Shown here piece by piece: positions 26,929 through 39,662 of a stretch of DNA of 64,000 bases (its first letter is position 1; every line of letters starts with the position of its first letter). Position numbers and translations under genes: made by a program. A model generated the notes under the pieces. It was given only the letters and a program-made list of their open reading frames with translations. It had not been told where the DNA came from and did not search any database. This DNA is from a virus: positions 103,972 to 167,971 of the IMG/VR virus record IMGVR_UViG_3300031521_000012; one strand, written 5' to 3'.

Positions 26929-27744
26929 TTATTTTAGTCCTTGAATTAATGTATCGCCATATTTAATACCATCAAAACCCATCTTCATTGCTTTTTGTGC
27001 ATTTGCCTTGGTCTTTATGTTAATAGCTGGCATGTTATATTTTTCACCTAGTTTTTCAAAATTTACATTCGGAAACCATATTTTAGCTAGAATGTCAACT
27101 GGCTGTTGACTATCTTTATATGCAATCCCCAATGAATTTGTATCCAAAAGATTATCAAATTCGATTTCATATTTACTATATCCCTCAATAGGATTAATAG
27201 TAAAAAAGTTACCAACAACGGAATTATTCTTAATTGGGTCTCGTCTATATGCTATGATCTTTTGCTGATTAAGACTTGGGGTTTCAGTTTGAATGTTAAA
27301 ATTATCTTCATCCAACGAAGATAGAAATTGATCTTCATCATCACCATAATAATTTATAGCATCTTGCATTTCAACTTCTTCAATACCTTGTGAACCTTCA
27401 TATTCGTAAATATCCTGTATCTTATTTAAAATACGACAAGCATCATTTTTATTTAACATGACCATAACTGCTTTTAGATTAACACCATCCAATATAGCTT
27501 TAATTTGGCGATGATGTCCATCAATTACATTAAAATCCATATCTATATAGATTGGTTTAAGATCGTTTATTTCTGCTTTTCCTACTTCATCAGCAAATAC
27601 TATTTGTTGAGATACGTTTAATTTATTTGGGTCGGCATCCACTATTTTATAGCCAATACCCTCATCATCCAGTTTCTGTAACACAATACTGTATGGTAAA
27701 TTCAACTGAGGCATGAAGTAAGGTTTGTAGCGAGCATCAATCAT
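26929..27744 (-). CDS. ParB/Srx-like nuclease domain fused to possible ART-like C-terminal domain
   Basis: PIYIDMDFNVIDGHHR; acidic linker; C-terminal AYR..GNFFT..NLLD..GFDGIKY. Confidence 0.7.
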   Translation of the reverse strand: MIDARYKPYFMPQLNLPYSIVLQKLDDEGIGYKIVDADPNKLNVSQQIVFADEVGKAEINDLKPIYIDMDFNVIDGHHRQIKAILDGVNLKAVMVMLNKNDACRILNKIQDIYEYEGSQGIEEVEMQDAINYYGDDEDQFLSSLDEDNFNIQTETPSLNQQKIIAYRRDPIKNNSVVGNFFTINPIEGYSKYEIEFDNLLDTNSLGIAYKDSQQPVDILAKIWFPNVNFEKLGEKYNMPAINIKTKANAQKAMKMGFDGIKYGDTLIQGLK

Positions 27745-27757
27745 AAAATATTTTATT

Positions 27758-27765
27758 ATAAATAC
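27758..27765 (-). promoter_or_regulatory. GTATTTAT motif
   Basis: 13 bp upstream of 27744. Confidence 0.65.
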
Positions 27766-27772
27766 GCAAATC

Positions 27773-28675
27773 TTATTTTTTTATTTCCTTATCAATAAAA
27801 TCCCAATTGCTTAATGGAATCCACCCATATTTAGTGTTTATTTCTAATTCGCTAACTGGAATCTCTTTAGTTGTTATCCATTCATAGCCATCTTTCTTAT
27901 TGAACTTTGGTGATTGCTGAAAATCATCGGTTAATTTAGTTCTTAATACAACTGCTTTATTATCTCCACCTTTCATGTTAGCATAGTAATTAGCAACGTT
28001 AAGATCACTTGTAAACGAAGTAAATTGTTCATTGGCAGCATCGGGTCTCATTCTACCTTCACGCTGTATATGATACCCTGCGCCATCAGAAGTGCCATGA
28101 TAAATATAATTACCAGCAACAAAATCTTTAATTACTTCATCGATAATACCACCTACATTAAATTCAGACTCAACTAATGCAAAGTTGCCATCATGTGCCT
28201 CATATATATTAAATGTAATATGTTGAGGAAGCAAATGTTTAATACCTTGGTATGATTCAATATCAGTATCTCTATCATCAAAAACACTGATCTCAACTAA
28301 ATCTGGAAATTTAGCAACATATTGTAATATTTTCTCACCCTTAGTTAATTCGCTATGCTTCATATCGAGTTTATCAACATGAATGTTGTTTATATCTAAA
28401 ATTGCTTGAACTTCAGGGCGTAATTTCTCCATTCTTGATGTTAATACAATTACATAGGTATCAGGAGTATTCTTTTCCTTTAAATATTGTTGATACATAC
28501 TAGGAAATGGCTTAATATCAAAGATATTTAAGTCTAAACTTTCTTTCCTGCCCCACCAGCCAATATATGGAAAAGGTCTATTATAGTAATTAGCCCATGC
28601 AATTTTTCCCTCTTCAGGCAATGCTGTGGGGAATAACGTAGCATCTAAATCAAACGCCACCAGTCTTTTAATCAT
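27773..28675 (-). CDS. HAD phosphatase (Swiss-Army-Knife RNA-repair type) fused to ADP-ribosyltransferase-fold domain
   Basis: FDLDATLF, WW, LTSR, K, FDDR; C-terminal YHGTS..TSFTSD..A..YA..YEWI. Confidence 0.75.
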   Translation of the reverse strand: MIKRLVAFDLDATLFPTALPEEGKIAWANYYNRPFPYIGWWGRKESLDLNIFDIKPFPSMYQQYLKEKNTPDTYVIVLTSRMEKLRPEVQAILDINNIHVDKLDMKHSELTKGEKILQYVAKFPDLVEISVFDDRDTDIESYQGIKHLLPQHITFNIYEAHDGNFALVESEFNVGGIIDEVIKDFVAGNYIYHGTSDGAGYHIQREGRMRPDAANEQFTSFTSDLNVANYYANMKGGDNKAVVLRTKLTDDFQQSPKFNKKDGYEWITTKEIPVSELEINTKYGWIPLSNWDFIDKEIKK

Positions 28676-28720
28676 AATTTATTTTTTTTCGTAATCGATA
28701 GTAATTAAAATTATTTTTCG

Positions 28721-28739
28721 TGTATTTATTATAAATACA
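28721..28739. promoter_or_regulatory. palindromic double GTATTTAT motif between divergent genes
   Basis: tgtatttat-t-ataaataca, a perfect inverted repeat. Confidence 0.7.
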
Positions 28740-28744
28740 AAACT

Positions 28745-29752
28745 ATGAAAAATTATGATATAAAGCAAATGGCTGAATACTATTTTAACAGTAAACTTAC
28801 AAACAGAGAAATTGCAAAAATTTTTAACATATCGCCATGTACTGTTACTTATCAACTAAAAAGAAATGGATATACTCTTATTGATAAAGTACAATATGGA
28901 AACAATAGAAAACATAGTATAGATTTGAATTTTTTCAAAACAATCAATTCGTCCAATAAGGCATATATTTTGGGCTTAATATTATCTGATGGCTATGTAG
29001 ATGACTATACCAAATTAACGTTTACATCTAAAGATATTGAATTGGTTAAAATTTTTAAAAAAGAATTAAAATCAGAGCATAAATTGGCAACATATGATGT
29101 GTTCGATAAAAGAACCAATAAAACATATACAAGACATTCAATACAAATAGCATCAAAAGAAATTGTTTCTGATTTAAATAAACTTGGTGTATTTTCGAAA
29201 AAATCATTCACATGTACAATGCCTGAAATACCTGAAGCATATTTTTGGCATTTTATTAGAGGACTTTTCGATGGGGACGGTTCTATAAGCAAAGGAAGTA
29301 TGCGTAAAGAAGGCGCATTACAGTTTTCGATTATAGGTTCCGAAAACATGTTGAGGGTGATAAAAAACAAATTTAAATTATATGGGTTATCAAACACTAA
29401 ATTTGAAATTACTAAATATCATTCAGAGGATGACCATATCGCAAAGTTACATTATTATTCATATAATGACTTGTTTTTTCTAAATGAAAAAATATATGAA
29501 AATTCTGAGGGTCTAAGACTGACAAGAAAATATGATGTTTTTCAAACACTAAAAGAATATAGATTAGGGACTTACGATAGAACACCATCTTTACGCCAAA
29601 TTAGCATGTATGATTTAGAAAATAATTTACTTAAGATGTATAAAAACATACATGAAGCTTGTGATGAAAATAATTTATCTTATAAAACAATACATAGAGT
29701 TGCAATGGGTGAAAGAAATCACACACACTATCTGGTTTTTAGATATGTTTAA
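28745..29752 (+). CDS. LAGLIDADG homing endonuclease with N-terminal HTH and C-terminal NUMOD1-like domain
   Basis: AYILGLILSDG and FIRGLFDGDG; the only substantial + strand gene. Confidence 0.9.
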   Translation: MKNYDIKQMAEYYFNSKLTNREIAKIFNISPCTVTYQLKRNGYTLIDKVQYGNNRKHSIDLNFFKTINSSNKAYILGLILSDGYVDDYTKLTFTSKDIELVKIFKKELKSEHKLATYDVFDKRTNKTYTRHSIQIASKEIVSDLNKLGVFSKKSFTCTMPEIPEAYFWHFIRGLFDGDGSISKGSMRKEGALQFSIIGSENMLRVIKNKFKLYGLSNTKFEITKYHSEDDHIAKLHYYSYNDLFFLNEKIYENSEGLRLTRKYDVFQTLKEYRLGTYDRTPSLRQISMYDLENNLLKMYKNIHEACDENNLSYKTIHRVAMGERNHTHYLVFRYV

Positions 29753-29766
29753 TAACAATCATATTT

Positions 29767-30291
29767 TTATTTATAAAATGTTTTATATATTAATTTATCT
29801 ATATCAGCAAAAGGAACTTTAACTGTTATATCATTTCTTCCCCAATTTTTTCTACAATACCTTCGATAATTACCTAAACCAGCTTTTTCATAATATATCG
29901 TAAATCCTTCATCGTCAATATCAGACTTTCTAACGTTTTCTTCAACTAATGTTACTAAATCGGTTCTCATTACAAGATCAAAACGATTATCTCTTTCAAA
30001 TGCAATAGCTTTTAATTCACTGACATAAAGCCAACCAATGTCGCCATGAACGTTTTTAAGTTCAACCCATGTCTTGCCATCAGCTGTATCATGCTTAATA
30101 CCTTTCACATCGATGCTTTCATAAACACCATCTTTCGCTATCATTACATCCCAATGCTCATGCATATTCTCATATCGACTCGACTTCTCACATGTATAGC
30201 CTTCGGCAATTGCTAACTTCATGAACAAATCTTCACTAATATCACCCTTAGCTAAATCATCACTAATTTTACTTCTCAATTGATCATCCAT
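29767..30291 (-). CDS. PD-(D/E)XK nuclease-family protein
   Basis: GDISEDLF..HWDV..IDVKG..WVELKNVHGDIGWLY; start set at MDDQL. Confidence 0.65.
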   Translation of the reverse strand: MDDQLRSKISDDLAKGDISEDLFMKLAIAEGYTCEKSSRYENMHEHWDVMIAKDGVYESIDVKGIKHDTADGKTWVELKNVHGDIGWLYVSELKAIAFERDNRFDLVMRTDLVTLVEENVRKSDIDDEGFTIYYEKAGLGNYRRYCRKNWGRNDITVKVPFADIDKLIYKTFYK

Positions 30292-30296
30292 TATAT

Positions 30297-30677
30297 TTAT
30301 CTTGTTACTTCGGTTACTACGCCTGTTAATTTCAACGGAAACTTTATTGGTTGCCAATTATCCAATTTATTAGACATGAATGGTTTACCACCTGCAAGTC
30401 TATTTACGGCTACGGTAATATGTGCTTTATTATTTTGTGTATGATACCCCTCAACACCAACAGCCATTACCATAAAATCCATAGCATAGTCAATAACTGT
30501 TAGCTGAACTTCCATCCCAATATCATTTCTATATTGGGAATTGATTTCACCCATGTTAATTGTTGAATGGTGTGCTAATAACTCCCAATCATCAGGAATC
30601 ATTGGCTTAAACACTTTGATTAATCTGTCGTGTGATTCTTGATCAAGAACCACTGCGCTATATGATATGTTATTCAT
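30297..30677 (-). CDS. 2H phosphoesterase (tRNA-ligase cyclic phosphodiesterase-like)
   Basis: YSAVVL..HHSTINMG..AHITVA, two HxT motifs. Confidence 0.85.
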   Translation of the reverse strand: MNNISYSAVVLDQESHDRLIKVFKPMIPDDWELLAHHSTINMGEINSQYRNDIGMEVQLTVIDYAMDFMVMAVGVEGYHTQNNKAHITVAVNRLAGGKPFMSNKLDNWQPIKFPLKLTGVVTEVTR

Positions 30678-31713
30678 TAATATGTAAATTTTTTATTAAA
30701 ATATTGAAATCATCATAATTTTTATCAATAATAAATATAAACAGAAATCCGTTTTTTATACAGGCTTCACGTTTTAACTGGTTTTTTTCAAAATCTTTAG
30801 TATATAAATATCCGTTTTTAATCTCCACAATCAAATTATATTCAGGTAATAAAAAATCAGAATAATATATTTTATTGAACTCCAAATACACATAAGGAAT
30901 TCTAGGACCTCTCTTTATATCATAATATTCATAATATTTATCAAGAAAATCTTTTTCGTAACTACCTTGATAATAAATATCTTCATATTCGTGTACTTTC
31001 ATTGCACTTTTTTGCTGTTTGTTGAAAATTTCTTCATTTTGAGAACAATATTCAACGCCATATTTTGCTAAATTAGTCTTTTTTATTTCCTCCCGCATTC
31101 TTTTTGATTGAAACAAATATTCAACACCATATTTTGCTAAATTAGTACTTTTTGTTTTAGCCCTAGCTTTGTCGGTTTGACATGCAAATTCAATACCGTA
31201 TTTTATAAAATTATTTTTCTTGATATTATTTTTAATTGTTTCATTTTGAAAAGGATGAATAGTACCATAGTTTTTCATAAAAGTTTTTTCTTTTTTTTCT
31301 TTTACACTGGCATTATTTAAAGTACATTTATTTCCATATTTACGAATGTTCGTGTCAGCTATTTTTTCTTTAATTTTTTCATCATGCATTTGATGATAAA
31401 CACCGTGCTTGTTAAAATAATTGTTTTTTCTTTTTTCTAAAACATCTTTGTTCATGGTGGGCACATCACATCCATATTTTTTAACATTAGTTTCGCATGT
31501 TTTTGCTCTTATACATTTCGCAGAACATGTCTTAGAATATCCGTCACTTATTCTCAAATACTTGGTTTCGTTTCCACAATACTTACAAATGCCATCGTTT
31601 TCATCTTTAACCCATTTATCAAAATATATTTTAGGGTGAAAATGTTTCTCGGTAATATGTGTGCCAAGTGAAATAAAATTTTTTGCAAGAAATCCACATT
31701 CTTCACAAATCAT
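30670..31713 (-). CDS. homing endonuclease-like protein (Zn fingers, KYG repeats, PD-(D/E)XK)
   Basis: CEEC..H..H; CKYC; repeated T.L.KYGV; YYSDF..IVEIK. Confidence 0.8.
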   Translation of the reverse strand: MICEECGFLAKNFISLGTHITEKHFHPKIYFDKWVKDENDGICKYCGNETKYLRISDGYSKTCSAKCIRAKTCETNVKKYGCDVPTMNKDVLEKRKNNYFNKHGVYHQMHDEKIKEKIADTNIRKYGNKCTLNNASVKEKKEKTFMKNYGTIHPFQNETIKNNIKKNNFIKYGIEFACQTDKARAKTKSTNLAKYGVEYLFQSKRMREEIKKTNLAKYGVEYCSQNEEIFNKQQKSAMKVHEYEDIYYQGSYEKDFLDKYYEYYDIKRGPRIPYVYLEFNKIYYSDFLLPEYNLIVEIKNGYLYTKDFEKNQLKREACIKNGFLFIFIIDKNYDDFNILIKNLHINE

Positions 31714-31771
31714 TTTGCCGTCACTATTTTTTTCTATATTCTTTCACAATTCATTCATTAATCATACAATA

Positions 31772-34700
31772 TTATTTCTTTTCGTTTAAATTATTGTTAA
31801 GCGTCATATCAACATTATCATCGCCAAATTCACTATATGAAAACACTAATTTATTGCCAGTTAATGTTAGTTCATTATCAAATGTTTTCACATATTTTTT
31901 ACCTTCGCCTTTTTTCACATATGCAATCGTTATATGTGGATGATATTCATCAAATTCTGAAGTGTATGGTAATGTTTTCATTAACTTATTCAATCTTGTC
32001 AATTCTTCCGAATGTACATCAAATTTAACCACATCGAATTCGTCATTTTCAAATGTTGATATTCCTGAAATCTTAATAGATATTGGCTTTAATGACGTAT
32101 TTTTCTTAAATAATTCAAATGCCTCATTAGCCTTTACATCATTATTAAAACCATATAAAATAGTGACATGTGGCTCTGTTTCTATTCCATATCCATTGTC
32201 TTTTATGTACAAGTCATCAGATTTAATTATTGAGGTTAGCTTCTTCCATTTAGGAACATCCAAATACAACATCAAACAGCCATATTCAATATCATCACTA
32301 TTAGGCGCTTCATTCATGGTAATATTCATTTTATCATCCGAGTGTGCTTGATTTGGAAATCTCGCTCTACGAATCATTTCATTGCTGATCTTATTGGCGT
32401 ATATATTGAAAAATTTAAACTGTGAACTCTTGTTTTGAGCGATTTCTGTTAATTTTTTAACATTATTTGCTTGCTGTTCACCTCTATCCATATAATCATC
32501 ACTCGTATCTGATAGTCCAAATGCATTGTTTGATGATATTCTTCTTAATAATAAGTATTGATCTTGATGATCATCGATAAAATCATATGGCTCAATAAAT
32601 CCCAAAGCCTTAGCCATCGAATTATGATTGAAATACATATCTTCAGTCGCAACATATAAATCACCGTTTTTGTCAGCAATTGCACGCACAAACGAATTAA
32701 AGCCAGACAAAGACTTAGGATTTTTGAAGATTGGTGTCCATTCTTCTGTTCTAGTGTGCTGAACATATGCTATTGGCTTTTCAGCATTAATACTTAATGC
32801 CTTTTCTTGTGCATATTTATTATCAAACTCTTTTCCAGCATCGGGAATATTAAATGCTTTTTCAGCATATTTATCACCGATACCTTCTTGTACTGAATTA
32901 TCGCCAATAGTTGTCAATAATGCATTTTTATCATTGCTTACCTTATCAGAATAGATTTTTAATAATAATGCTTTTTGTGTATCACCAATTTGCTTACCTT
33001 TTAAGCCCATCGACATTAAATCATTACCATTTACAGCTAATTCATTAATAGTCTTAGGATATTTACCCGAAAGCAGTTCTTGCGCTGCATTTTGTACTTC
33101 AGTAGGTATTATCTTGCTTTGTAGTGATACTGGCGATATAACGTACACGTTGTGAGCAATTGATCTTGCTTTAACTGCATTATCAACTTCACCTGAACCA
33201 AATGCTTGCTCATATGCTTTAATCTCCTTATAGGTATCAATATCGCCTTTTAAATTGTTTTTAAAGAATTCTGCAGGATTCGGCATTAAACGAGTTAGTA
33301 AGTAAATGTATTCACCCATTGTATGTACATCTTCGAACGGACTTCTATCGATAGTTGATTGTTGTAAATCAGTATCGAATATCTGTTGAAATATACCAGT
33401 GTCTTTAAGTAATTGTGTACCTGTTCTTTTATTACCTTTACTCACTATTTTTTGAAATTCGATTAATATTCTTTCAGGTGGAATTTCTTTAATTCTACTT
33501 GCGTTATCGATTATTAATTGCATTGTCTCAGGCTCAATAGTAAAACCAAATCTAGAAGAAAATTGAACGCTCCTGAGCATGCGGAGGGGATCATCTGCAA
33601 ATGCTTGTGGATTAACAACACGAATTATCTTATTCTTCAAGTCTTCCTGACCACCGAATGGATCGATTATGTTACCATCAATATCTTTAGCCATTGCATT
33701 AATGGTAAAGTCCCGGCGCCTAAGATCATCCTCAATAGGTAATTCATGATCAGATGTAACATCAAATCCTTTATGACCACCCTCACCAGTTGGTTTGTCT
33801 TGTCTAGGAATAGCAATATCAATATCTTCTGATGCGCCAGCTGGTTTGAACTTTAATACGCCAAATGATTTACCAACAGCATCGACTTTACCATATTTAG
33901 ATAATATTTGCTCTAGTCTATCCATTGGAATACCTGCGATAAGAATATCTAAGTCTTTAGATTCCTTGCCAAGAAATTCATCACGCACTGATCCTCCAAC
34001 CTGTAGGATTCTTCCTCCAAGATATTGTACTTCTTCTTTAAATGGTAGGTCTTGTAAAGACATCAATTCTTTCATTTCAGTTAATTCATTTTCGTTAATA
34101 CGTGTATTTGGCTCATAAAGATAGTTCAGTTCTGGAATAAAATTAAATCTAGGATTCAATATCTTAGCCTTATCCATAAATTGTTTAAACTGAGCAATTG
34201 CATCATCATAACTAGGATAACGTTTCCATGTAAAAGTAGGCAATGCTTCTCTTTCAATATCAGGTGTTGCCATAATATTAGATTCACCAAGTAATATAAC
34301 ATTTGTACTTAAATATCTTTGAACTGTTATAAATCCTGCTACTAACGGTGGTACTTGATTCCAGTTATAATAATCCAATTTGACAGCACCAACTCTATTT
34401 AGTATTCTTAACATATCATCATGAATTCCAAAGCTCTCACGTTCAGCATAAAAATTTCCCTCGGCATCAATAATTCCTCTTATATCATATCCGACACTAT
34501 CAGGTGTTTTAGGGTTTTTTATTATTTCATTTCCAATCTTATCTCTATATAATACGTTTTCGTTATCAATAAGGTTACGGTTTGCACGATATTTTTTATC
34601 AAATTCTTTAAATTCAGGCTCAACACCTTGCTTTTCAGCATACTTATCACCAATACCTTCACTAAGTCCTTTCCAATCTTTTATTGCGTGAATTTTTATG

Positions 34701-37700
34701 TGTTCATTGATGAAATTTATACCATGGTTTTTTGCTTTAGCTTTATCTAGAAATTGCTTAAATATTACTAATGCATCGTCAAACTTAGTAATACTATTCC
34801 AATCAGGTTGAGGACTTACTCTGGACTTAAAATCATCAGGAATTAAAGCTAAGTTAGATTCACCGACAAATATGTCATTTGTTCTTTCATAACGTTGTAC
34901 AGTAACAAAATTAGTTTCTAATGGCGTTTTAATATTCCATTCTTGAGCATCATTTAATAAATGCAATTCATCTAATATTCTAAGTAATGTAATATGTATA
35001 TATCTTGGATAACTTTCGATATATAAATTACCTTCTCTGTCAATAACACCCCTAACATTTCCAAAAATATTTTTCAATGAAGACGGATTTCTTATTATAA
35101 AATATTCTTCATCATCTTCTCTAAATACAATATTTTCTTGATCTTGTTGAATCAAATGATTTGTGTATTTTTTATTAAATTCTTTGAATTCTGGCTCAAC
35201 CCCTTGCTTTTCAGCATATTTATCACCAACTCCTTCTTCTATTTCTTCTTCTCTGATGCCATATAGGAAACCAGCTAGCTTATTATTATCATTTGGTAAT
35301 CTGAATGTATAGTGATTGCCTTTAACATCAAGATATATTTCCGATTGTCTTGAGCTTAAATAATTTATGAAAACAGTCTTTATTATTTCATTTATTCTAC
35401 CTGCCTTATTACCCTGTAGCATTAGATTTGGCTTTATTCCAACTAGTTGATAATCTAGCCTAATTAAACCATCATTAAATGCTTTATCATATAACTTATC
35501 AATATTATCATCAGTATATTCGAATTGTTCACCTGACAAATATACATCAACTAGATAATCTATATGTGATTGAACTTGAATAAATCTATTATCGGGTAAT
35601 ATCCAACCCAATATTCTTCTTTGTGTTAGCATATTTTTTAATGCGAATAAACCAATTCCAACATATTCATCAGTATTAACTTCTTCATCGATTTCATCAG
35701 GATGTGGTTCGACAGGCAATTTGCTTATATACTCTTTGTATATATATTTATTTATTGATTCATCACTATAGCCCAATAGTCTACCTATCTCATAAGCTTC
35801 TTCAGGTGTCTGATCATCAGCATAACCACCATGTTGCATCATTATAGTATATAGCTTCTCTGCATTTGCTTTAGCTTCAGGTGTATTTCGATAAACTACA
35901 TATGTTTCAGCATCATGATCTGTTTGCTCAACAGGGATTCCTTGAAGTCCGTTCTCAATTGCGATATTCATTAATTTGTCACGTAATGCTGGAAAATTGT
36001 TAAATGATATGATTGAAACATCTTTACTTCCATCTGCCATTGCTTGTAACGCACTTTCGTCACGATATCCTACACTTGCATCAACAGTTTCATTGATAAC
36101 ATCTTCGGATATATAATCAGCTAGTTTAGCTTTACCATCTGCATTACCAGTATAAAATTTTTCATATTCTTCAGGATTCTCATATTCTAAGTATATTGTA
36201 TTGTCACCATACTGAATAAAATTTAAGAATAACTTTTTAAGTACATCAACAACTCTTTTTTTATCATAACCATTCAAAGATAATTCAGTTCTATATTGTT
36301 TAGGAGAATATTCTGATATAACCCTCACCCATCCATCTTCATAAGCTTTTTCAAATACACCATCCCTGCCGAAACTTCTGGCATATTGTGATTCAATGAA
36401 AGCTGCGTGTCTTAGCTTCGGAACTTGTATTAATTCATCTTGTGGTGATACCCATGCCCAATATGTTTGATTATATGGAATCTGTTCTTCGTTCAATGGC
36501 TTAATAATTAAATTATTGATATCACCTTGATTACATGCAGCACTTGTATTGCCTAAACCACCTAATCTACATTTCTTCTTAACATCAACTGTGCTACTGC
36601 CAGCCATTGAAGAAGTTATTCTTTCGTTAACAGTCATGTGGTATCTATCGTTACCTATTTTATCAACAATCTTGCCTTTAAAATATTTAATCAATAAATC
36701 CTTCATATATGGATTTACCACATCTAAATTTAATTTAACTTTATTACCAAACATGCTACGGTACTCTTTAAACTGATTAATACCATCTTGTGTCAATTCA
36801 CGACCAATTCCAGTACCACGATACTTTTCATCAACTACAACATCAAACGAAAATTGATTATCTGATGCATCAAATTCTGAAAAGATTGCACCTGCAACAA
36901 CACCATCTTTCAAGACAAAGCCAGTTAATTCTTTACCACGTAAAATATTAATACCACTTTTTCTTGCTATTTCAACTGATTGATTATATACATCTTCTCT
37001 GTCGTATTCAGCTTCGTCTTCATCATAATTCATATCATCACCATCTTCAGAATATCCTATTACTTCTTCATCAACAACATATTCATCTTGTGTTGCATCA
37101 TCAACATGTGAATTTTCTAAATCCTCAGTATACATTGCAGAATTGGCATTTAGATCGTTTTCGATTGATGGTGATGTATCAATTGGATTATATGAAGGAA
37201 AATCATCTGTAGTTGTCAATGAAGTAGCATCTTCATCAACTTCAATTTGCTTAGTTGTATTTGGATTGGGGTATTCCCGTTCACTGAAACCAATATCGAA
37301 AAAGCCAATAACACCGCTTTTCTTATAACCTAGATTCTCTGGTCTTATAAAATCATAGCTTTCAACACCATTTTCTTGTGCTTCTTTAGCTATGTTTAAT
37401 ACACTATCGAAAAAATATTTATCATCAGGATTCTTATCCAAATATTTTTGAACCTTATTATACCCTGCTTCGCCCAAGTAATTAGCTAAAACATCTGTTA
37501 TCACATCGCTAAAATGTAAACCCAATATTTTGCTAAAAGCAAAATTCATTCGGTCTGTTAATCGTTTAAAATTACCATCTGTTTTTAATTTTTCCAATAT
37601 AATTGCAAAAAGATTTTCTTTTAACTTGTTAGATCGTGATTTAATTGCGTAAACATCATAAATATCAGCAATGTACTCCAATCTTTTACCTATAAGTTCA

Positions 37701-38884
37701 AGTGATTCATAAGCTTCACTACTATCAGTAGTAACTTTCAATACCTTACCATTTCCAATATCATATGCAGCGCCAAACATACCACCACCTAAAAATACTA
37801 GGTTATTGAAACCTAATCTCTCACCGATTTGTTTAGCAGCATCGTCAAATTCTTGTCTAGTTGGGTAGCCTTCGTTTAATATTTTTTCTTTGCTTAATGG
37901 AAATTCTTCAAGCATTAATGGGTCTCTATCGTAACGACCTTGACTAATTAAATATTCTTGTAGTTTTATTAGATTTCTATAGAATTTTTTCTTATCTTGT
38001 GTATGATTCAGTACTTCCTTAATGTTGTTTACACAATCATGGAAATTTTCGACCAAATAAGGTAAACTAGGAATTGGAATATTTGGGTAATAATCACGAT
38101 TAGAAACAAAATGAATGAATTCCTCATTGACTACTTCATCACCATCACCCACGCCATACGGTATTTGCGCCCACATACCCATTCTAATATCACTATCACC
38201 GCCAGCATCAGATAATATATCATCGTTACCATCAGCAAAGTTATATAGTTCGTACATTTGTTGACGTTTTCCATTACCGCTATAATGTGTAGCAAGTACT
38301 CCATCAGTTAATCCATAATCAGTTAATACGATTGTTGGTTGACCATCGTGTAATACTTCTCCATATAAACTAGTTCTACCTAAGTCACCAACATTCATGT
38401 TATAATCTAAAGACAACATCAGTACTCGCTGAGTAAACTCGTTTTCATCGAAAAATTCAATAAGTGCTTTGTCTTGATGCCAAGTAGCACGTTTTCCATT
38501 ATTTAACTCTATGAAAGTTTGAATATACGTCTTCATACTCCATAAATCAGGTATACCTGTTAATTGCTTAATTCTTGCTTCTGAAACTTTTCTTGCTTTT
38601 TCAACAATTAACCATGCATCGTTTTCATCATACTCAAAAACTTTTGTTACAATATCTTGAGTATTATGGTATATACCAATACTGCTTTCCACTTCATTTT
38701 GAGCAACACCTTTAGCGTTTTTAGCTAATTTAAATACTTTGCTACCGTCTATATCATAAACGATTCTACCTGAACCACTACCGATTTTAGCGAGATTTTG
38801 ATTAGAAAATTCTATTTTCTGCCTATAAGATTTGATTTCTAGAAACTTATCTAAAAAATTATTAAGGAATTCATCGTATGTCAT
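31772..38884 (-). CDS. 2370-aa polyvalent protein: kinase - kinase - GNAT - repeated unknown modules - CCA-adding tRNA nucleotidyltransferase - Acb1-like 2H phosphoesterase
   Basis: GSGSGRIVY/VFKLAK/TDYG; GGGMFG/VLKVT/DFIRPENLG/FDIG; VDEKYRGTGIG; VGGSVRD..DLD..DLRRRDFTINAMA..DDPLRMLR; PHVTILYG..PHITIAY. Confidence 0.88.
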   Translation of the reverse strand: MTYDEFLNNFLDKFLEIKSYRQKIEFSNQNLAKIGSGSGRIVYDIDGSKVFKLAKNAKGVAQNEVESSIGIYHNTQDIVTKVFEYDENDAWLIVEKARKVSEARIKQLTGIPDLWSMKTYIQTFIELNNGKRATWHQDKALIEFFDENEFTQRVLMLSLDYNMNVGDLGRTSLYGEVLHDGQPTIVLTDYGLTDGVLATHYSGNGKRQQMYELYNFADGNDDILSDAGGDSDIRMGMWAQIPYGVGDGDEVVNEEFIHFVSNRDYYPNIPIPSLPYLVENFHDCVNNIKEVLNHTQDKKKFYRNLIKLQEYLISQGRYDRDPLMLEEFPLSKEKILNEGYPTRQEFDDAAKQIGERLGFNNLVFLGGGMFGAAYDIGNGKVLKVTTDSSEAYESLELIGKRLEYIADIYDVYAIKSRSNKLKENLFAIILEKLKTDGNFKRLTDRMNFAFSKILGLHFSDVITDVLANYLGEAGYNKVQKYLDKNPDDKYFFDSVLNIAKEAQENGVESYDFIRPENLGYKKSGVIGFFDIGFSEREYPNPNTTKQIEVDEDATSLTTTDDFPSYNPIDTSPSIENDLNANSAMYTEDLENSHVDDATQDEYVVDEEVIGYSEDGDDMNYDEDEAEYDREDVYNQSVEIARKSGINILRGKELTGFVLKDGVVAGAIFSEFDASDNQFSFDVVVDEKYRGTGIGRELTQDGINQFKEYRSMFGNKVKLNLDVVNPYMKDLLIKYFKGKIVDKIGNDRYHMTVNERITSSMAGSSTVDVKKKCRLGGLGNTSAACNQGDINNLIIKPLNEEQIPYNQTYWAWVSPQDELIQVPKLRHAAFIESQYARSFGRDGVFEKAYEDGWVRVISEYSPKQYRTELSLNGYDKKRVVDVLKKLFLNFIQYGDNTIYLEYENPEEYEKFYTGNADGKAKLADYISEDVINETVDASVGYRDESALQAMADGSKDVSIISFNNFPALRDKLMNIAIENGLQGIPVEQTDHDAETYVVYRNTPEAKANAEKLYTIMMQHGGYADDQTPEEAYEIGRLLGYSDESINKYIYKEYISKLPVEPHPDEIDEEVNTDEYVGIGLFALKNMLTQRRILGWILPDNRFIQVQSHIDYLVDVYLSGEQFEYTDDNIDKLYDKAFNDGLIRLDYQLVGIKPNLMLQGNKAGRINEIIKTVFINYLSSRQSEIYLDVKGNHYTFRLPNDNNKLAGFLYGIREEEIEEGVGDKYAEKQGVEPEFKEFNKKYTNHLIQQDQENIVFREDDEEYFIIRNPSSLKNIFGNVRGVIDREGNLYIESYPRYIHITLLRILDELHLLNDAQEWNIKTPLETNFVTVQRYERTNDIFVGESNLALIPDDFKSRVSPQPDWNSITKFDDALVIFKQFLDKAKAKNHGINFINEHIKIHAIKDWKGLSEGIGDKYAEKQGVEPEFKEFDKKYRANRNLIDNENVLYRDKIGNEIIKNPKTPDSVGYDIRGIIDAEGNFYAERESFGIHDDMLRILNRVGAVKLDYYNWNQVPPLVAGFITVQRYLSTNVILLGESNIMATPDIEREALPTFTWKRYPSYDDAIAQFKQFMDKAKILNPRFNFIPELNYLYEPNTRINENELTEMKELMSLQDLPFKEEVQYLGGRILQVGGSVRDEFLGKESKDLDILIAGIPMDRLEQILSKYGKVDAVGKSFGVLKFKPAGASEDIDIAIPRQDKPTGEGGHKGFDVTSDHELPIEDDLRRRDFTINAMAKDIDGNIIDPFGGQEDLKNKIIRVVNPQAFADDPLRMLRSVQFSSRFGFTIEPETMQLIIDNASRIKEIPPERILIEFQKIVSKGNKRTGTQLLKDTGIFQQIFDTDLQQSTIDRSPFEDVHTMGEYIYLLTRLMPNPAEFFKNNLKGDIDTYKEIKAYEQAFGSGEVDNAVKARSIAHNVYVISPVSLQSKIIPTEVQNAAQELLSGKYPKTINELAVNGNDLMSMGLKGKQIGDTQKALLLKIYSDKVSNDKNALLTTIGDNSVQEGIGDKYAEKAFNIPDAGKEFDNKYAQEKALSINAEKPIAYVQHTRTEEWTPIFKNPKSLSGFNSFVRAIADKNGDLYVATEDMYFNHNSMAKALGFIEPYDFIDDHQDQYLLLRRISSNNAFGLSDTSDDYMDRGEQQANNVKKLTEIAQNKSSQFKFFNIYANKISNEMIRRARFPNQAHSDDKMNITMNEAPNSDDIEYGCLMLYLDVPKWKKLTSIIKSDDLYIKDNGYGIETEPHVTILYGFNNDVKANEAFELFKKNTSLKPISIKISGISTFENDEFDVVKFDVHSEELTRLNKLMKTLPYTSEFDEYHPHITIAYVKKGEGKKYVKTFDNELTLTGNKLVFSYSEFGDDNVDMTLNNNLNEKK
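32859..35236 (-). repeat. three coding repeats starting EG(I/V)GDKYAEK (35167-35236, 34591-34660, about 32859-32887)
   Basis: First two copies are 576 bp apart and match at 63 of 70 nt. Confidence 0.9.
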
Positions 38885-38904
38885 GTTCTGATTATTAGTT
38901 AATA

Positions 38905-38912
38905 ATAAATAC
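38905..38912 (-). promoter_or_regulatory. GTATTTAT motif
   Basis: 20 bp upstream of the polyprotein start. Confidence 0.65.
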
Positions 38913-38945
38913 AGAATTCATTATAAAAGGGCGTTTATTTAATTA

Positions 38946-39662
38946 TTACTGCCTTTTTGCTTCGTTTTTTGCTTTGAGTTCTCTAAACGCTTCAAAAACA
39001 ATGCTTTTAATCATTTCTTTATTATCGCCTAATACTTCCTTAATACGTTCAACAGCATACATTTCCAATATTGTGCTCTTAATTGCTTCCTCGACAATAG
39101 GACCGAAATTCTCTACCAAATAATTATTTACTATAGTTTTTACATTTTCGGTTAAATATGCTTCATTAATCTGCATTGGCGCACCCGTCATTTGCTGCTG
39201 TGGTTGTTGTGGAACATAATTATTATTCATTGGCGCACCTATGTTAGGAGTTTGTGTATATGCTCCCATTTGTTCGGCTAAAGTCTGTTTTCTTTTTCTT
39301 TCTACATCAAGATATAATTGTTCATCCCTTTCAGCAGATGACATATCACCTTCATTGATTCTATTGGGTTGTTGTGTTTGTTGACGGGTAGGTTCTGCAT
39401 CTTTAATTGGTAATTTTGTTCCCAATTTTATATTGCCTTTCCTTTCCATTGCATTATCATATGTTTTAACTAAAATAGTTGATGGAGTTTCCTTACCAGT
39501 ATTAAATGATTCCAACAACCCACTTAGAAATGAATCACGTGGTGCTAAATTATTACCGCTATTACTGATATTTTCGCCTAATCTAGTCGATACTCTATTT
39601 TTCTCATTTGTACGAGTAGATATTTCATCCCTCAGAATATTTAAGTCAAATTTTTGTGTCAT
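38946..39662 (-). CDS. hypothetical protein rich in (I/L)xE sites (candidate internal head protein)
   Basis: LGEN, LLES, INEG, INEA, LTEN, LVEN; own GTATTTAT motif. Confidence 0.65.
   Translation of the reverse strand: MTQKFDLNILRDEISTRTNEKNRVSTRLGENISNSGNNLAPRDSFLSGLLESFNTGKETPSTILVKTYDNAMERKGNIKLGTKLPIKDAEPTRQQTQQPNRINEGDMSSAERDEQLYLDVERKRKQTLAEQMGAYTQTPNIGAPMNNNYVPQQPQQQMTGAPMQINEAYLTENVKTIVNNYLVENFGPIVEEAIKSTILEMYAVERIKEVLGDNKEMIKSIVFEAFRELKAKNEAKRQ

Follow-up and report, generated by a model that had tools for sequence, protein, structure and literature searches.

Gene content of the locus

The sequence under study (hereafter the window) comprises the final 64 kb, positions 103,972 to 167,971, of the 167,971-bp IMG/VR virus record IMGVR_UViG_3300031521_000012 (~30% G+C, ~51% complete according to CheckV) and encodes three predicted RNA-end enzymes, i.e. 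a CCA-adding domain within a giant protein, a 126-aa 2H protein and a HAD phosphatase, which are neighbours or fusion partners of one another in related phages. It is proposed that the trio forms a set of enzymes, dispersed in this phage, that would heal and rebuild tRNA 3' ends, a reading to which, judged from sequences and predicted structures, a probability of about 60% may be assigned. Since the complete relatives span 300-363 kb, the source is regarded as a jumbo myophage; a megablast search of the GenBank phages with positions 27000-39000 of the window returned zero matches, i.e. no cultured close relative. The genes of the window lie almost all on the minus strand and the open reading frames (ORFs) are read normally with code 11. 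Those of interest are given below, the three enzymes and the giant protein preceding the remaining features.

31772-38884 (-): P0001, giant polyvalent-type ORF of 2370 aa, with CCA and Acb1-like 2H domains, a weak GNAT match and repeated unassigned modules
32885-34069 (-): CCA-adding domain, residues ~1606-2000 of P0001; head, neck, body and tail all found, no HD domain
30297-30677 (-): P0003, small 2H protein of 126 aa, predicted 2',3'-cyclic phosphodiesterase of a minimal CNPase/Trl1 type
27773-28675 (-): P0002, HAD protein of 300 aa, a DxDxT HAD with an ART-fold-like tail
28121-28675 (-): HAD domain of P0002, residues 1-185, predicted member of the HAD_SAK_1 family
27776-28120 (-): tail of P0002, residues 186-300, ART-fold-like
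32309-32884 (-): module 'A3' of P0001, the third repeat of a ~170-aa unit, separating the CCA domain from the 2H domain
31775-32308 (-): Acb1-like 2H domain of P0001, residues 2193-2370, with HVT and HIT motifs
30670-31713 (-): DUF7487-type homing endonuclease gene (Pfam DUF7487, 2e-36; phrog_3339, homing endonuclease)
29767-30291 (-): P0004, facultative 174-aa ORF (from Met23), possible PD-(D/E)xK fold
28745-29752 (+): LAGLIDADG homing endonuclease gene with a helix-turn-helix (Pfam LAGLIDADG_3, 5e-8; phrog_4645, 8e-43)
26929-27744: P0006, ParB-like neighbour of the HAD gene, with a DGHHR motif

In the order of transcription, the 2370-aa ORF is followed by the DUF7487 endonuclease, the 126-aa 2H, the 174-aa ORF, the LAGLIDADG gene on the opposite strand and the HAD. 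The DUF7487 endonuclease gene separates the giant gene from that of the small 2H, at a place where the relatives have no endonuclease and where their giant and small 2H genes are adjacent or fused. Two homing endonuclease genes thus split a row that is contiguous or fused in the relatives, separating the 2H and the HAD. The CCA enzyme and two 2H domains had been placed correctly in a preliminary description of this DNA, which, however, treated the CCA enzyme and the first 2H as separate genes; they are domains of one ORF, P0001, with no internal stop codon across them, and the right border given there (34070) is an internal domain border of this ORF and not a gene end.

The CCA-adding domain

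The two strings quoted earlier for the CCA assignment, RQDKPTGEGGHKGF and IEDDLRRRD, were both located in the translation of 31772-38884 (-), within the succession PolyA_pol, PolyA_pol_RNAbd and tRNA_NucTran2_2 that covers residues 1629-1992. The corresponding Pfam scores are 77.7 bits for PolyA_pol (cut-off 23) and 57.9 bits for PolyA_pol_RNAbd, tRNA_NucTran2_2 being matched at residues 1944-1992. Among the NCBIfam models, that of the Bacillus-type CCA enzyme, NF009814, scores highest, with 167.5 bits and an alignment over positions 24-392 of its 396, and phrog_2244 is matched with 5e-66. Concerning the structures, the best PDB matches of the nucleotidyltransferase are CCA-adding enzymes, the top one being the CCA enzyme from B. 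stearothermophilus (1miv), with whose motifs DxD, RRD and DDxxR the segments GGSVRD..DLD, RRRDFTIN and DDPLRMLR of the phage domain align; its motifs A and B are joined by a loop of normal length, which aligns to the same enzyme. By its sequence, the domain is a divergent class II CCA-adding-type enzyme with head, neck, body and tail.

The absence of an HD domain, as stated in the preliminary description, agrees with the E. coli-type model NF008137 matching at positions 3-207 of 409 only and with no HD family being found in Pfam; such an absence is normal for CCA enzymes of the Bacillus type. Enzymes of the CCA type are common in large phages, 332 GenBank phage records being matched (E <= 1e-20), none of them being at least 45% identical to the domain of the window.

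The small 2H protein

Both HxT motifs of the 126-aa protein, H37-x-T39 and H86-x-T88, are invariant in the alignment of 17 homologues, and both are also retained in the nine fusion proteins inspected (see below). The window thus holds, as described earlier, two 2H domains with two HxT motifs each, the other being located at residues 2237-2341 of P0001 (2_5_RNA_ligase2, Acb1). The Pfam family tRNA_lig_CPD is matched by 16 of the 17 family members (best E 9e-8). Fold searches were needed for both the small 2H and the HAD because the PDB sequence searches, with either a single sequence or a profile in the case of the small 2H, gave nothing significant. The AlphaFold (AF2) model of the small 2H has a predicted local distance difference test score (pLDDT) of 95.4, and in an exhaustive structure comparison this model matched the catalytic domain of CNPase with Z 13.3 and a root-mean-square deviation of 2.0 A over 124 of 126 residues. 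The other 2H branches score far lower (Acb1-type 7.4 and 7.1, DrCPDase 7.3, LigT-type 6.2, with Appr>p CPDase and Usb1 also within 5.5-7.4), and Foldseek agrees with CNPase as the nearest fold.

The earlier label of a ligase-type 2H therefore holds at the level of both family and fold, and the family-wide profile matches together with the modelled fold identify the protein as a predicted minimal member of the branch formed by CNPase and the cyclic phosphodiesterase domain of Trl1. The enzymes known from this branch convert 2',3'-cyclic phosphates into 2'-phosphates.

The HAD protein and its tail

In the HAD family (16 homologues aligned), D9, D11, R81, K106, K112 and D134 do not vary and T79 hardly does, which fits HAD motifs I-IV; the family also has a conserved GWWG(R/K)xESLD insert. 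All 16 members match HAD_SAK_1 (best E 7.3e-11), and the precomputed Pfam field of the CCA-HAD fusions described below contains PF10307. The 'Swiss Army Knife' (SAK) proteins were reportedly defined by Burroughs and Aravind in 2016. According to the Aravind group, the HAD_SAK_1 family acts in phages on the terminal phosphates of RNA (PMC7824862, PMC9503650). Over residues 1-160 the AF2 model exceeds a pLDDT of 90, and two structures share the top rank in the exhaustive comparison with Z 13.5 each, the 3'-phosphatase of T4 Pnkp and the Pnkp1 phosphatase from the Pnkp1/Rnl/Hen1 repair complex. Foldseek with the same model failed to distinguish RNA-end phosphatases from other HADs, and PDB sequence searches with the HAD yielded nothing significant. 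The 'RNA-repair HAD' of the preliminary description is recovered at 27773-28675 (-) as a DxDxT HAD, whose role in RNA repair is predicted from the family-wide matches and from the top-ranking folds.

The last 115 residues form an ART-fold-like tail present only in the window and in two relatives (L004 and L006), i.e. in 3 of ~19 relatives. An atlas of structures gave as leads for this tail, with moderate model confidence, Tox-ART-HYD1, PARP, RNA 2'-phosphotransferase (Tpt1/KptA; TM 0.62) and DUF952; the RNA 2'-phosphotransferase lead would fit the removal of a 2'-phosphate, but the PARP-like and toxin-ART leads score equally. A sub-pathway of the Tpt1/Appr>p kind, combining the ART-like tail with the Acb1-like 2H, was considered and rejected, the two co-occurring only in the window.

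Linkage and fusions in the relatives

The relatives were gathered in two ways, 19 related contigs being found via the CCA module and 80 further viral loci being picked via the small 2H alone. All 19 contigs keep the same row, consisting of a WYL gene, a 238-aa ORF, the giant CCA protein, the small 2H, an optional 174-aa ORF, the HAD, the ParB-like protein and a glycosyltransferase; in 12 of these loci the giant protein continues in frame into a C-terminal small 2H, and the remaining seven have a free small 2H. Among the loci with enough flanking sequence, the CCA module lies upstream of the small 2H in 63 of 67 and the HAD downstream of it in 73 of 77.

It is the rearranged fusions that lend independent weight to the linkage. 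Searching 1.8 billion representative proteins with a profile revealed 2179 relatives of the small 2H (representative clusters), and 42 of the best 150 among them also contain the CCA module. All three activities are predicted on single 2H-CCA-HAD chains of ~700 aa (P0055, P0070, P0132 and P0158-160), while the pairwise combinations are represented by 2H-CCA (P0098, P0125), CCA-HAD (P0161-164) and 2H-HAD fusions (P0040, P0146); in one protein (P0037) the order CCA-2H-HAD ends a longer chain. The catalytic motifs are intact in P0055, P0070, P0132, P0098, P0125, P0040, P0146 and P0037; in the ninth fusion checked, the longer chain P0041, a pattern search gave no RRD match. Starting from the HAD, the region used as a single query found no match among longer proteins; the alignment query did, and seven of the eight longer proteins obtained with the HAD profile are CCA-HAD or 2H-CCA-HAD fusions.

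The stand-alone trifunctional genes occur in other phage contexts, alone on their strand, in one case near genes for a thioredoxin, an RNA ligase, a cREC protein and an AAA_33 kinase, and one locus (L129) has a free 2H gene immediately before a CCA-HAD gene. Metagenomic fusions of an AAA_33 P-loop kinase with the small 2H (P0075, P0089, P0100 and P0134; 310-405 aa) have the arrangement known from Trl1 and CNPase. At L103:9959-11127, and likewise in L104 and L105, the small 2H has no CCA or HAD neighbour and the next gene encodes a calcineurin-like metallophosphoesterase, which, by its sequence, looks like a non-orthologous replacement of the phosphatase step. It should be pointed out that the recurrent partners of the small 2H are all RNA-end enzymes. 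The joint action of a cyclic phosphodiesterase, a phosphatase and a CCA enzyme, as put forward in the preliminary description, is therefore strongly supported for the trio by gene order and fusions; the Acb1-like 2H, which had been counted in, stands outside it.

Proposed mechanism and alternative explanations

Based on the above results, a three-step course may be envisaged. The 126-aa 2H protein would first act on the 2',3'-cyclic phosphate that a metal-independent RNase leaves behind, opening it to give, by analogy with the CNPase/Trl1 branch, a 2'-phosphate and a 3'-OH; the HAD_SAK_1 phosphatase would then strip the remaining phosphate, and the class II CCA-adding domain would finally restore the missing C, C and A. 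Metal-independent RNases are considered as the source of damage because the cyclic-phosphate chemistry points there. The domain identities, intact motifs, folds, linkage and fusions are observations; from them we infer the substrates, the order of the steps, the regiochemistry and a use against damage to host tRNA tails, and also, as the preliminary description had done, a counter-toxin or counter-defence purpose. The purpose may be double, covering both tail repair and the maturation of phage tRNAs: the CCA domain very probably also matures the phage's own tRNAs, a task at least as likely as repair. HEPN toxins trim tRNA 3' ends, and the toxins MenT and CapRel block them. Transfer RNA is a main target of bacterial immunity, and cleavage of its CCA tail is a proven anti-phage strategy, by which Cas12a3 stops phages (PMC12851939).

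Several points weigh against this reading. At the level of single proteins, P0003 itself scores 18.7 bits on tRNA_lig_CPD, below the cut-off of 23, P0002 alone scores 15.9 bits on HAD_SAK_1 (cut-off 25.6), and the 167.5 bits of the CCA domain on NF009814 are below the equivalog cut-off of 290, all its NCBIfam scores lying below the cut-offs. Unrelated HADs come within ~1.5 Z of the Pnkp matches, and because they score so closely, the fold alone leaves the substrate of the HAD unfixed. The linked loci belong mostly to one phage clade, their counts thus being non-independent, and the 34-55 CCA-less tRNA genes of the relatives would by themselves explain the presence of a CCA enzyme. RuvC sites leave 3'-OH ends, for which a cyclic phosphodiesterase would be unnecessary. 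Cas12a3, the best-documented immune nuclease that cuts tRNA tails, acts via a RuvC site (PMC12851939) and, moreover, takes off the discriminator base too, which a CCA enzyme may not restore. Finally, polyvalent proteins routinely fuse unrelated activities (PMC5512222).

The most serious alternative, although rather unlikely in our view, is a housekeeping one, in which the CCA enzyme would only mature the phage tRNAs, whereas the 2H and the HAD would repair cuts in anticodon loops in the manner of T4, with the help of a polynucleotide kinase and an Rnl2-like ligase, instead of acting on tRNA 3' termini. The tRNA genes speak for it: there are 50, 55 and 34 of them in three complete relatives (G001-G003; arrays L107-L112), a fourth (G004) having only six, and ~93% of the relatives' tRNA genes examined have no encoded CCA, so that the CCA module is needed for the maturation of phage tRNAs anyway. 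The relatives further encode two to four PF09414 ligases, some of them within the tRNA arrays, as well as small AAA_33 kinases, i.e. classical break repair is also available to the phage, although it is not linked to the trio. The kinase-2H fusions mentioned above point in the same direction, as do passages of the jumbo-phage review that place 2H and HAD enzymes in ligase-dependent repair (PMC7824862). As a separate observation, G001 and G002 have one tRNA each with the anticodon CTA (amber-reading, suppressor-like).

In the window's own record, a check of the remaining part recommended earlier gave one tRNA and one Rnl2-like ligase; the window itself, as had been noted, has no RNA ligase. The tRNA (G000:C1:70770-70845, minus strand, 76 nt) is Ser(tga) according to ARAGORN and has no encoded CCA; being the only one in the record, it suggests that the array probably lies in the missing half. 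It seems to be without the long variable arm usual for bacterial tRNA-Ser. The ligase, another item in favour of the housekeeping explanation, adjoins this tRNA gene at ~60 kb from the module (G000:C1:68627-70747; L002:128-2248, minus strand) and is a 706-aa ORF whose exteins form the ligase, with a match to the N-terminal part of PF09414 and a ~370-aa LAGLIDADG intein after GEWAG; its motif I, KAHGTN, is Rnl2-like. The exteins gave nothing significant against PDB by sequence. Rnl1 (PF09511) and RtcB (PF01139) were not found in the ~51% complete record, a result that does not show their absence, the Rnl1 control search having matched nowhere.

What speaks against the housekeeping explanation is the company kept by the enzymes: dozens of proteins show the small 2H and the HAD joined to the CCA enzyme or next to it, no ligase fusion of either was seen among the 150 best 2H-bearing representatives, and the ligase and kinase genes are tens of kb distant. 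In addition, G004 retains the trio with its mere six tRNAs, and the ordinary removal of a 3' trailer, as is generally known, gives a 3'-OH, for which no cyclic phosphodiesterase is required.

A second alternative, which appears improbable, assigns the 2H enzymes to the destruction of host immune nucleotides (2'-5'-linked ones and those of type III CRISPR and the cyclic oligonucleotide-based anti-phage signalling system, CBASS), as in the case of Acb1, with the HAD dephosphorylating the products and the CCA neighbourhood resulting from polyvalent mosaicism. It draws on the C-terminal 2H of P0001, which, taken in isolation, scores 41.8 bits on 2_5_RNA_ligase2, 33.4 on Acb1 (above the cut-off of 27) and 27.2 on LigT, and whose HVT and HIT motifs are invariant in five sequences; against PDB, the profile of the five homologues matched Acb1 chains only, albeit weakly (E 0.025-0.05). 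The 2H domains of the polyvalent type are, furthermore, predicted to degrade nucleotide signals or to act as RNases, never occurring with ligases (PMC5512222), and a WYL protein adjoins the giant gene. The small 2H, however, matches CNPase far above Acb1 (Z 13.3 against 7.1-7.4), its partners are RNA-end enzymes (CCA, SAK-HAD and a PNK-like kinase), and compact 2H-CCA-HAD proteins exist outside any polyvalent protein. The Acb1-like 2H itself is facultative, being found in 24 of 67 related loci, and in relatives it always adjoins CCA or small 2H modules. It probably represents an activity separate from the trio, and may serve, about equally likely, the degradation of immune signals or another RNA-end reaction.

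That the nucleotidyltransferase would be a poly(A) polymerase or some other non-CCA enzyme, named earlier as the finding that would overturn the assignment, is very improbable: although the Pfam head domain is common to PcnB, structures of the E. coli poly(A) polymerase match the head (E 1e-25) and TIGR01942 (pcnB) scores 110 bits, this last match covers the head only, whereas the CCA models score higher and span head, neck, body and tail, the top PDB matches are CCA-adding enzymes, tRNA_NucTran2_2 is matched in the body/tail and the loop between motifs A and B is kept.

The giant protein and the neighbouring genes

The giant ORFs homologous to P0001 range from 745 to 2689 aa in the relatives, with their modules reshuffled. 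With many unrelated catalytic domains in one chain, shuffled among relatives, P0001 fits the class of polyvalent proteins. Besides the domains discussed above, it has a weak GNAT match at residues 650-708, under the Pfam cut-off, and copies of module A3, whose leader EG(I/V)GDKYAEK recurs inside P0001 and in relatives; neither A3 nor the kinase-like modules of the protein gave any family match.

The CCA module is bracketed on either side by a motif of the form (I/L/M/V)-x-Glu, in the window as well as in each of the 14 relatives compared. Within P0001, such motifs mark module borders at residues 336-338, 1215-1217, 1407-1409, 1603-1605, 1998-2000 and 2190-2192, and borders are marked likewise in L003-L020; in relatives they also precede other modules and the fused small 2H. 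It should be noted that the total of [LIVMF]xE[GAS] in the giant protein, 10 against 9.1 expected, is not above chance, and it is only the placement at borders that is notable. The prohead protease of T4 cleaves the ejected protein Alt at ITE and LTE, and the relatives encode a protease of the T4 gp21 type (Peptidase_S77). The border motifs and the protease together suggest that the giant protein may be packaged into the head, processed and ejected. The N-terminus of P0001, MTYDEFLNNF (38842-38884), may resemble the capsid targeting sequence of T4 internal proteins, MKTYQEFIAE.

The giant protein could, as a tentative possibility, be a head-packaged polyprotein that is cut by the gp21-type protease at (I/L/M/V)xE and ejected with the DNA, supplying a kit for the repair of tRNA tails before phage gene expression and so a pre-emptive counter to immunity that clips or blocks tRNA 3' tails. 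If so, the ejected kit would consist of the CCA enzyme, the Acb1-like esterase and other modules, and in many relatives also of the mini cyclic phosphodiesterase, while the stand-alone 2H-CCA-HAD proteins of ~700 aa would make up a new class of trifunctional anti-defence tRNA repair enzymes.

Concerning the remaining genes of the row, L017 carries, at the corresponding location, a copy of the LAGLIDADG gene with 62% identity. Some relatives only have a homologue of P0004 in the interval from the 2H gene to the HAD gene, and its possible fold is suggested by atlas leads, namely NOV_C in 18% and PDDEXK_14 in 13% of members. P0006 adjoins the HAD gene in all relatives, and its DGHHR motif recalls domains of the ParB/sulfiredoxin type; Pfam gave no match for this protein, and a weak one was obtained to phrog_2859 (unknown function; E 1.8e-4). 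A search of NCBIfam with the HAD, the small 2H, P0004 and P0006 assigned no family to any of them.

Implications and comparison with known systems

The phage answers to attacks on tRNA comprise, to our knowledge, spare tRNAs and the kinase-phosphatase-ligase repair of anticodons in T4, no dedicated system for the 3' tail having been demonstrated. The trio represents a concrete and widespread candidate for such a system, its genes being adjacent in ~70 related loci and fused in various combinations in other phages. Should the proposal prove true, it would be a second, non-homologous solution to the task of the HD domain in the E. coli CCA enzyme, and an RNA-repair enzyme would join the cargo of polyvalent phage proteins. 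The natural single-chain versions of ~700 aa are easy to express and assay.

The closest known counterpart is E. coli Cca, a class II nucleotidyltransferase with an HD domain; this HD domain was reportedly characterized by Yakunin and co-workers in 2004 as a 2',3'-cyclic phosphodiesterase, 2'-nucleotidase and phosphatase. In both cases the addition of CCA is physically coupled to the opening of a cyclic phosphate and the removal of a phosphate, the latter two being predicted here; the trio, however, uses two unrelated folds, 2H and HAD, with no HD domain, and its parts in the window are one module of a 2370-aa protein and two separate genes. The trio is thus, by analogy of the predicted activities, a functional analogue and not a member of the E. 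coli-type CCA/repair enzymes.

With the cyclic phosphodiesterases of the fungal and plant tRNA ligase Trl1 and of vertebrate CNPase, the small 2H shares the branch, by both profile and fold, and its AAA_33-2H relatives repeat the order of kinase and phosphodiesterase. It differs in having 126 aa, i.e. ~60% of the CNPase catalytic domain, in having no ligase joined to it and in its partners, CCA and HAD; the 2'-phosphate product is assumed. Concerning T4 Pnkp and the Pnkp1-Rnl-Hen1 system, these provide the top structure matches of P0002, other HADs following closely; P0002 is a DxDxT HAD as well, which, unlike them, has no kinase domain and carries the GWWG(R/K)xESLD insert and the ART-like tail.

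The individual parts were foreseen for jumbo phages: passages of the review by Iyer, Anantharaman, Krishnan, Burroughs and Aravind (2021) list 2H, SAK-type HAD, KptA ART, CCA-adding enzyme, Rnl1/Rnl2 and tRNA arrays as predicted repair components (PMC7824862), and the phage clade of the window has all the parts listed there. In those passages, however, the parts are separate and serve ligases, the SAK HAD 'tends to occur as a standalone domain' and no 2H-CCA-HAD link appears (PMC7824862). The polyvalent proteins (Iyer et al. 2017, PMC5512222) resemble P0001 in being long chains of unrelated, shuffled modules, and the Acb1-like 2H passes the cut-off; P0001 differs in that neither a zincin peptidase nor a linkage to MuF or portal genes was seen in the window, candidate sites of the T4 prohead-protease type being present instead, and a CCA enzyme is not mentioned in the founding paper (PMC5512222). 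As for Acb1, the phage anti-CBASS 2H, its Pfam cut-off is exceeded by the C-terminal domain of the giant protein, which matches only Acb1 chains in PDB, but these matches are weak (E 0.025), the generic 2_5_RNA_ligase2 scores higher and the neighbours are CCA and the small 2H.

In the literature searched, a scope outside which the original SAK definition lies, neither the recurrent 2H-CCA-HAD linkage nor trifunctional single chains nor a CCA enzyme in a polyvalent protein was found. What is known, therefore, are the parts as predicted RNA-repair components of jumbo phages and, from E. coli, a CCA enzyme with built-in end healing; what appears to be new is the arrangement, in which the HAD joins the CCA enzyme and the small 2H and the three are fused in every pair as well as all together.

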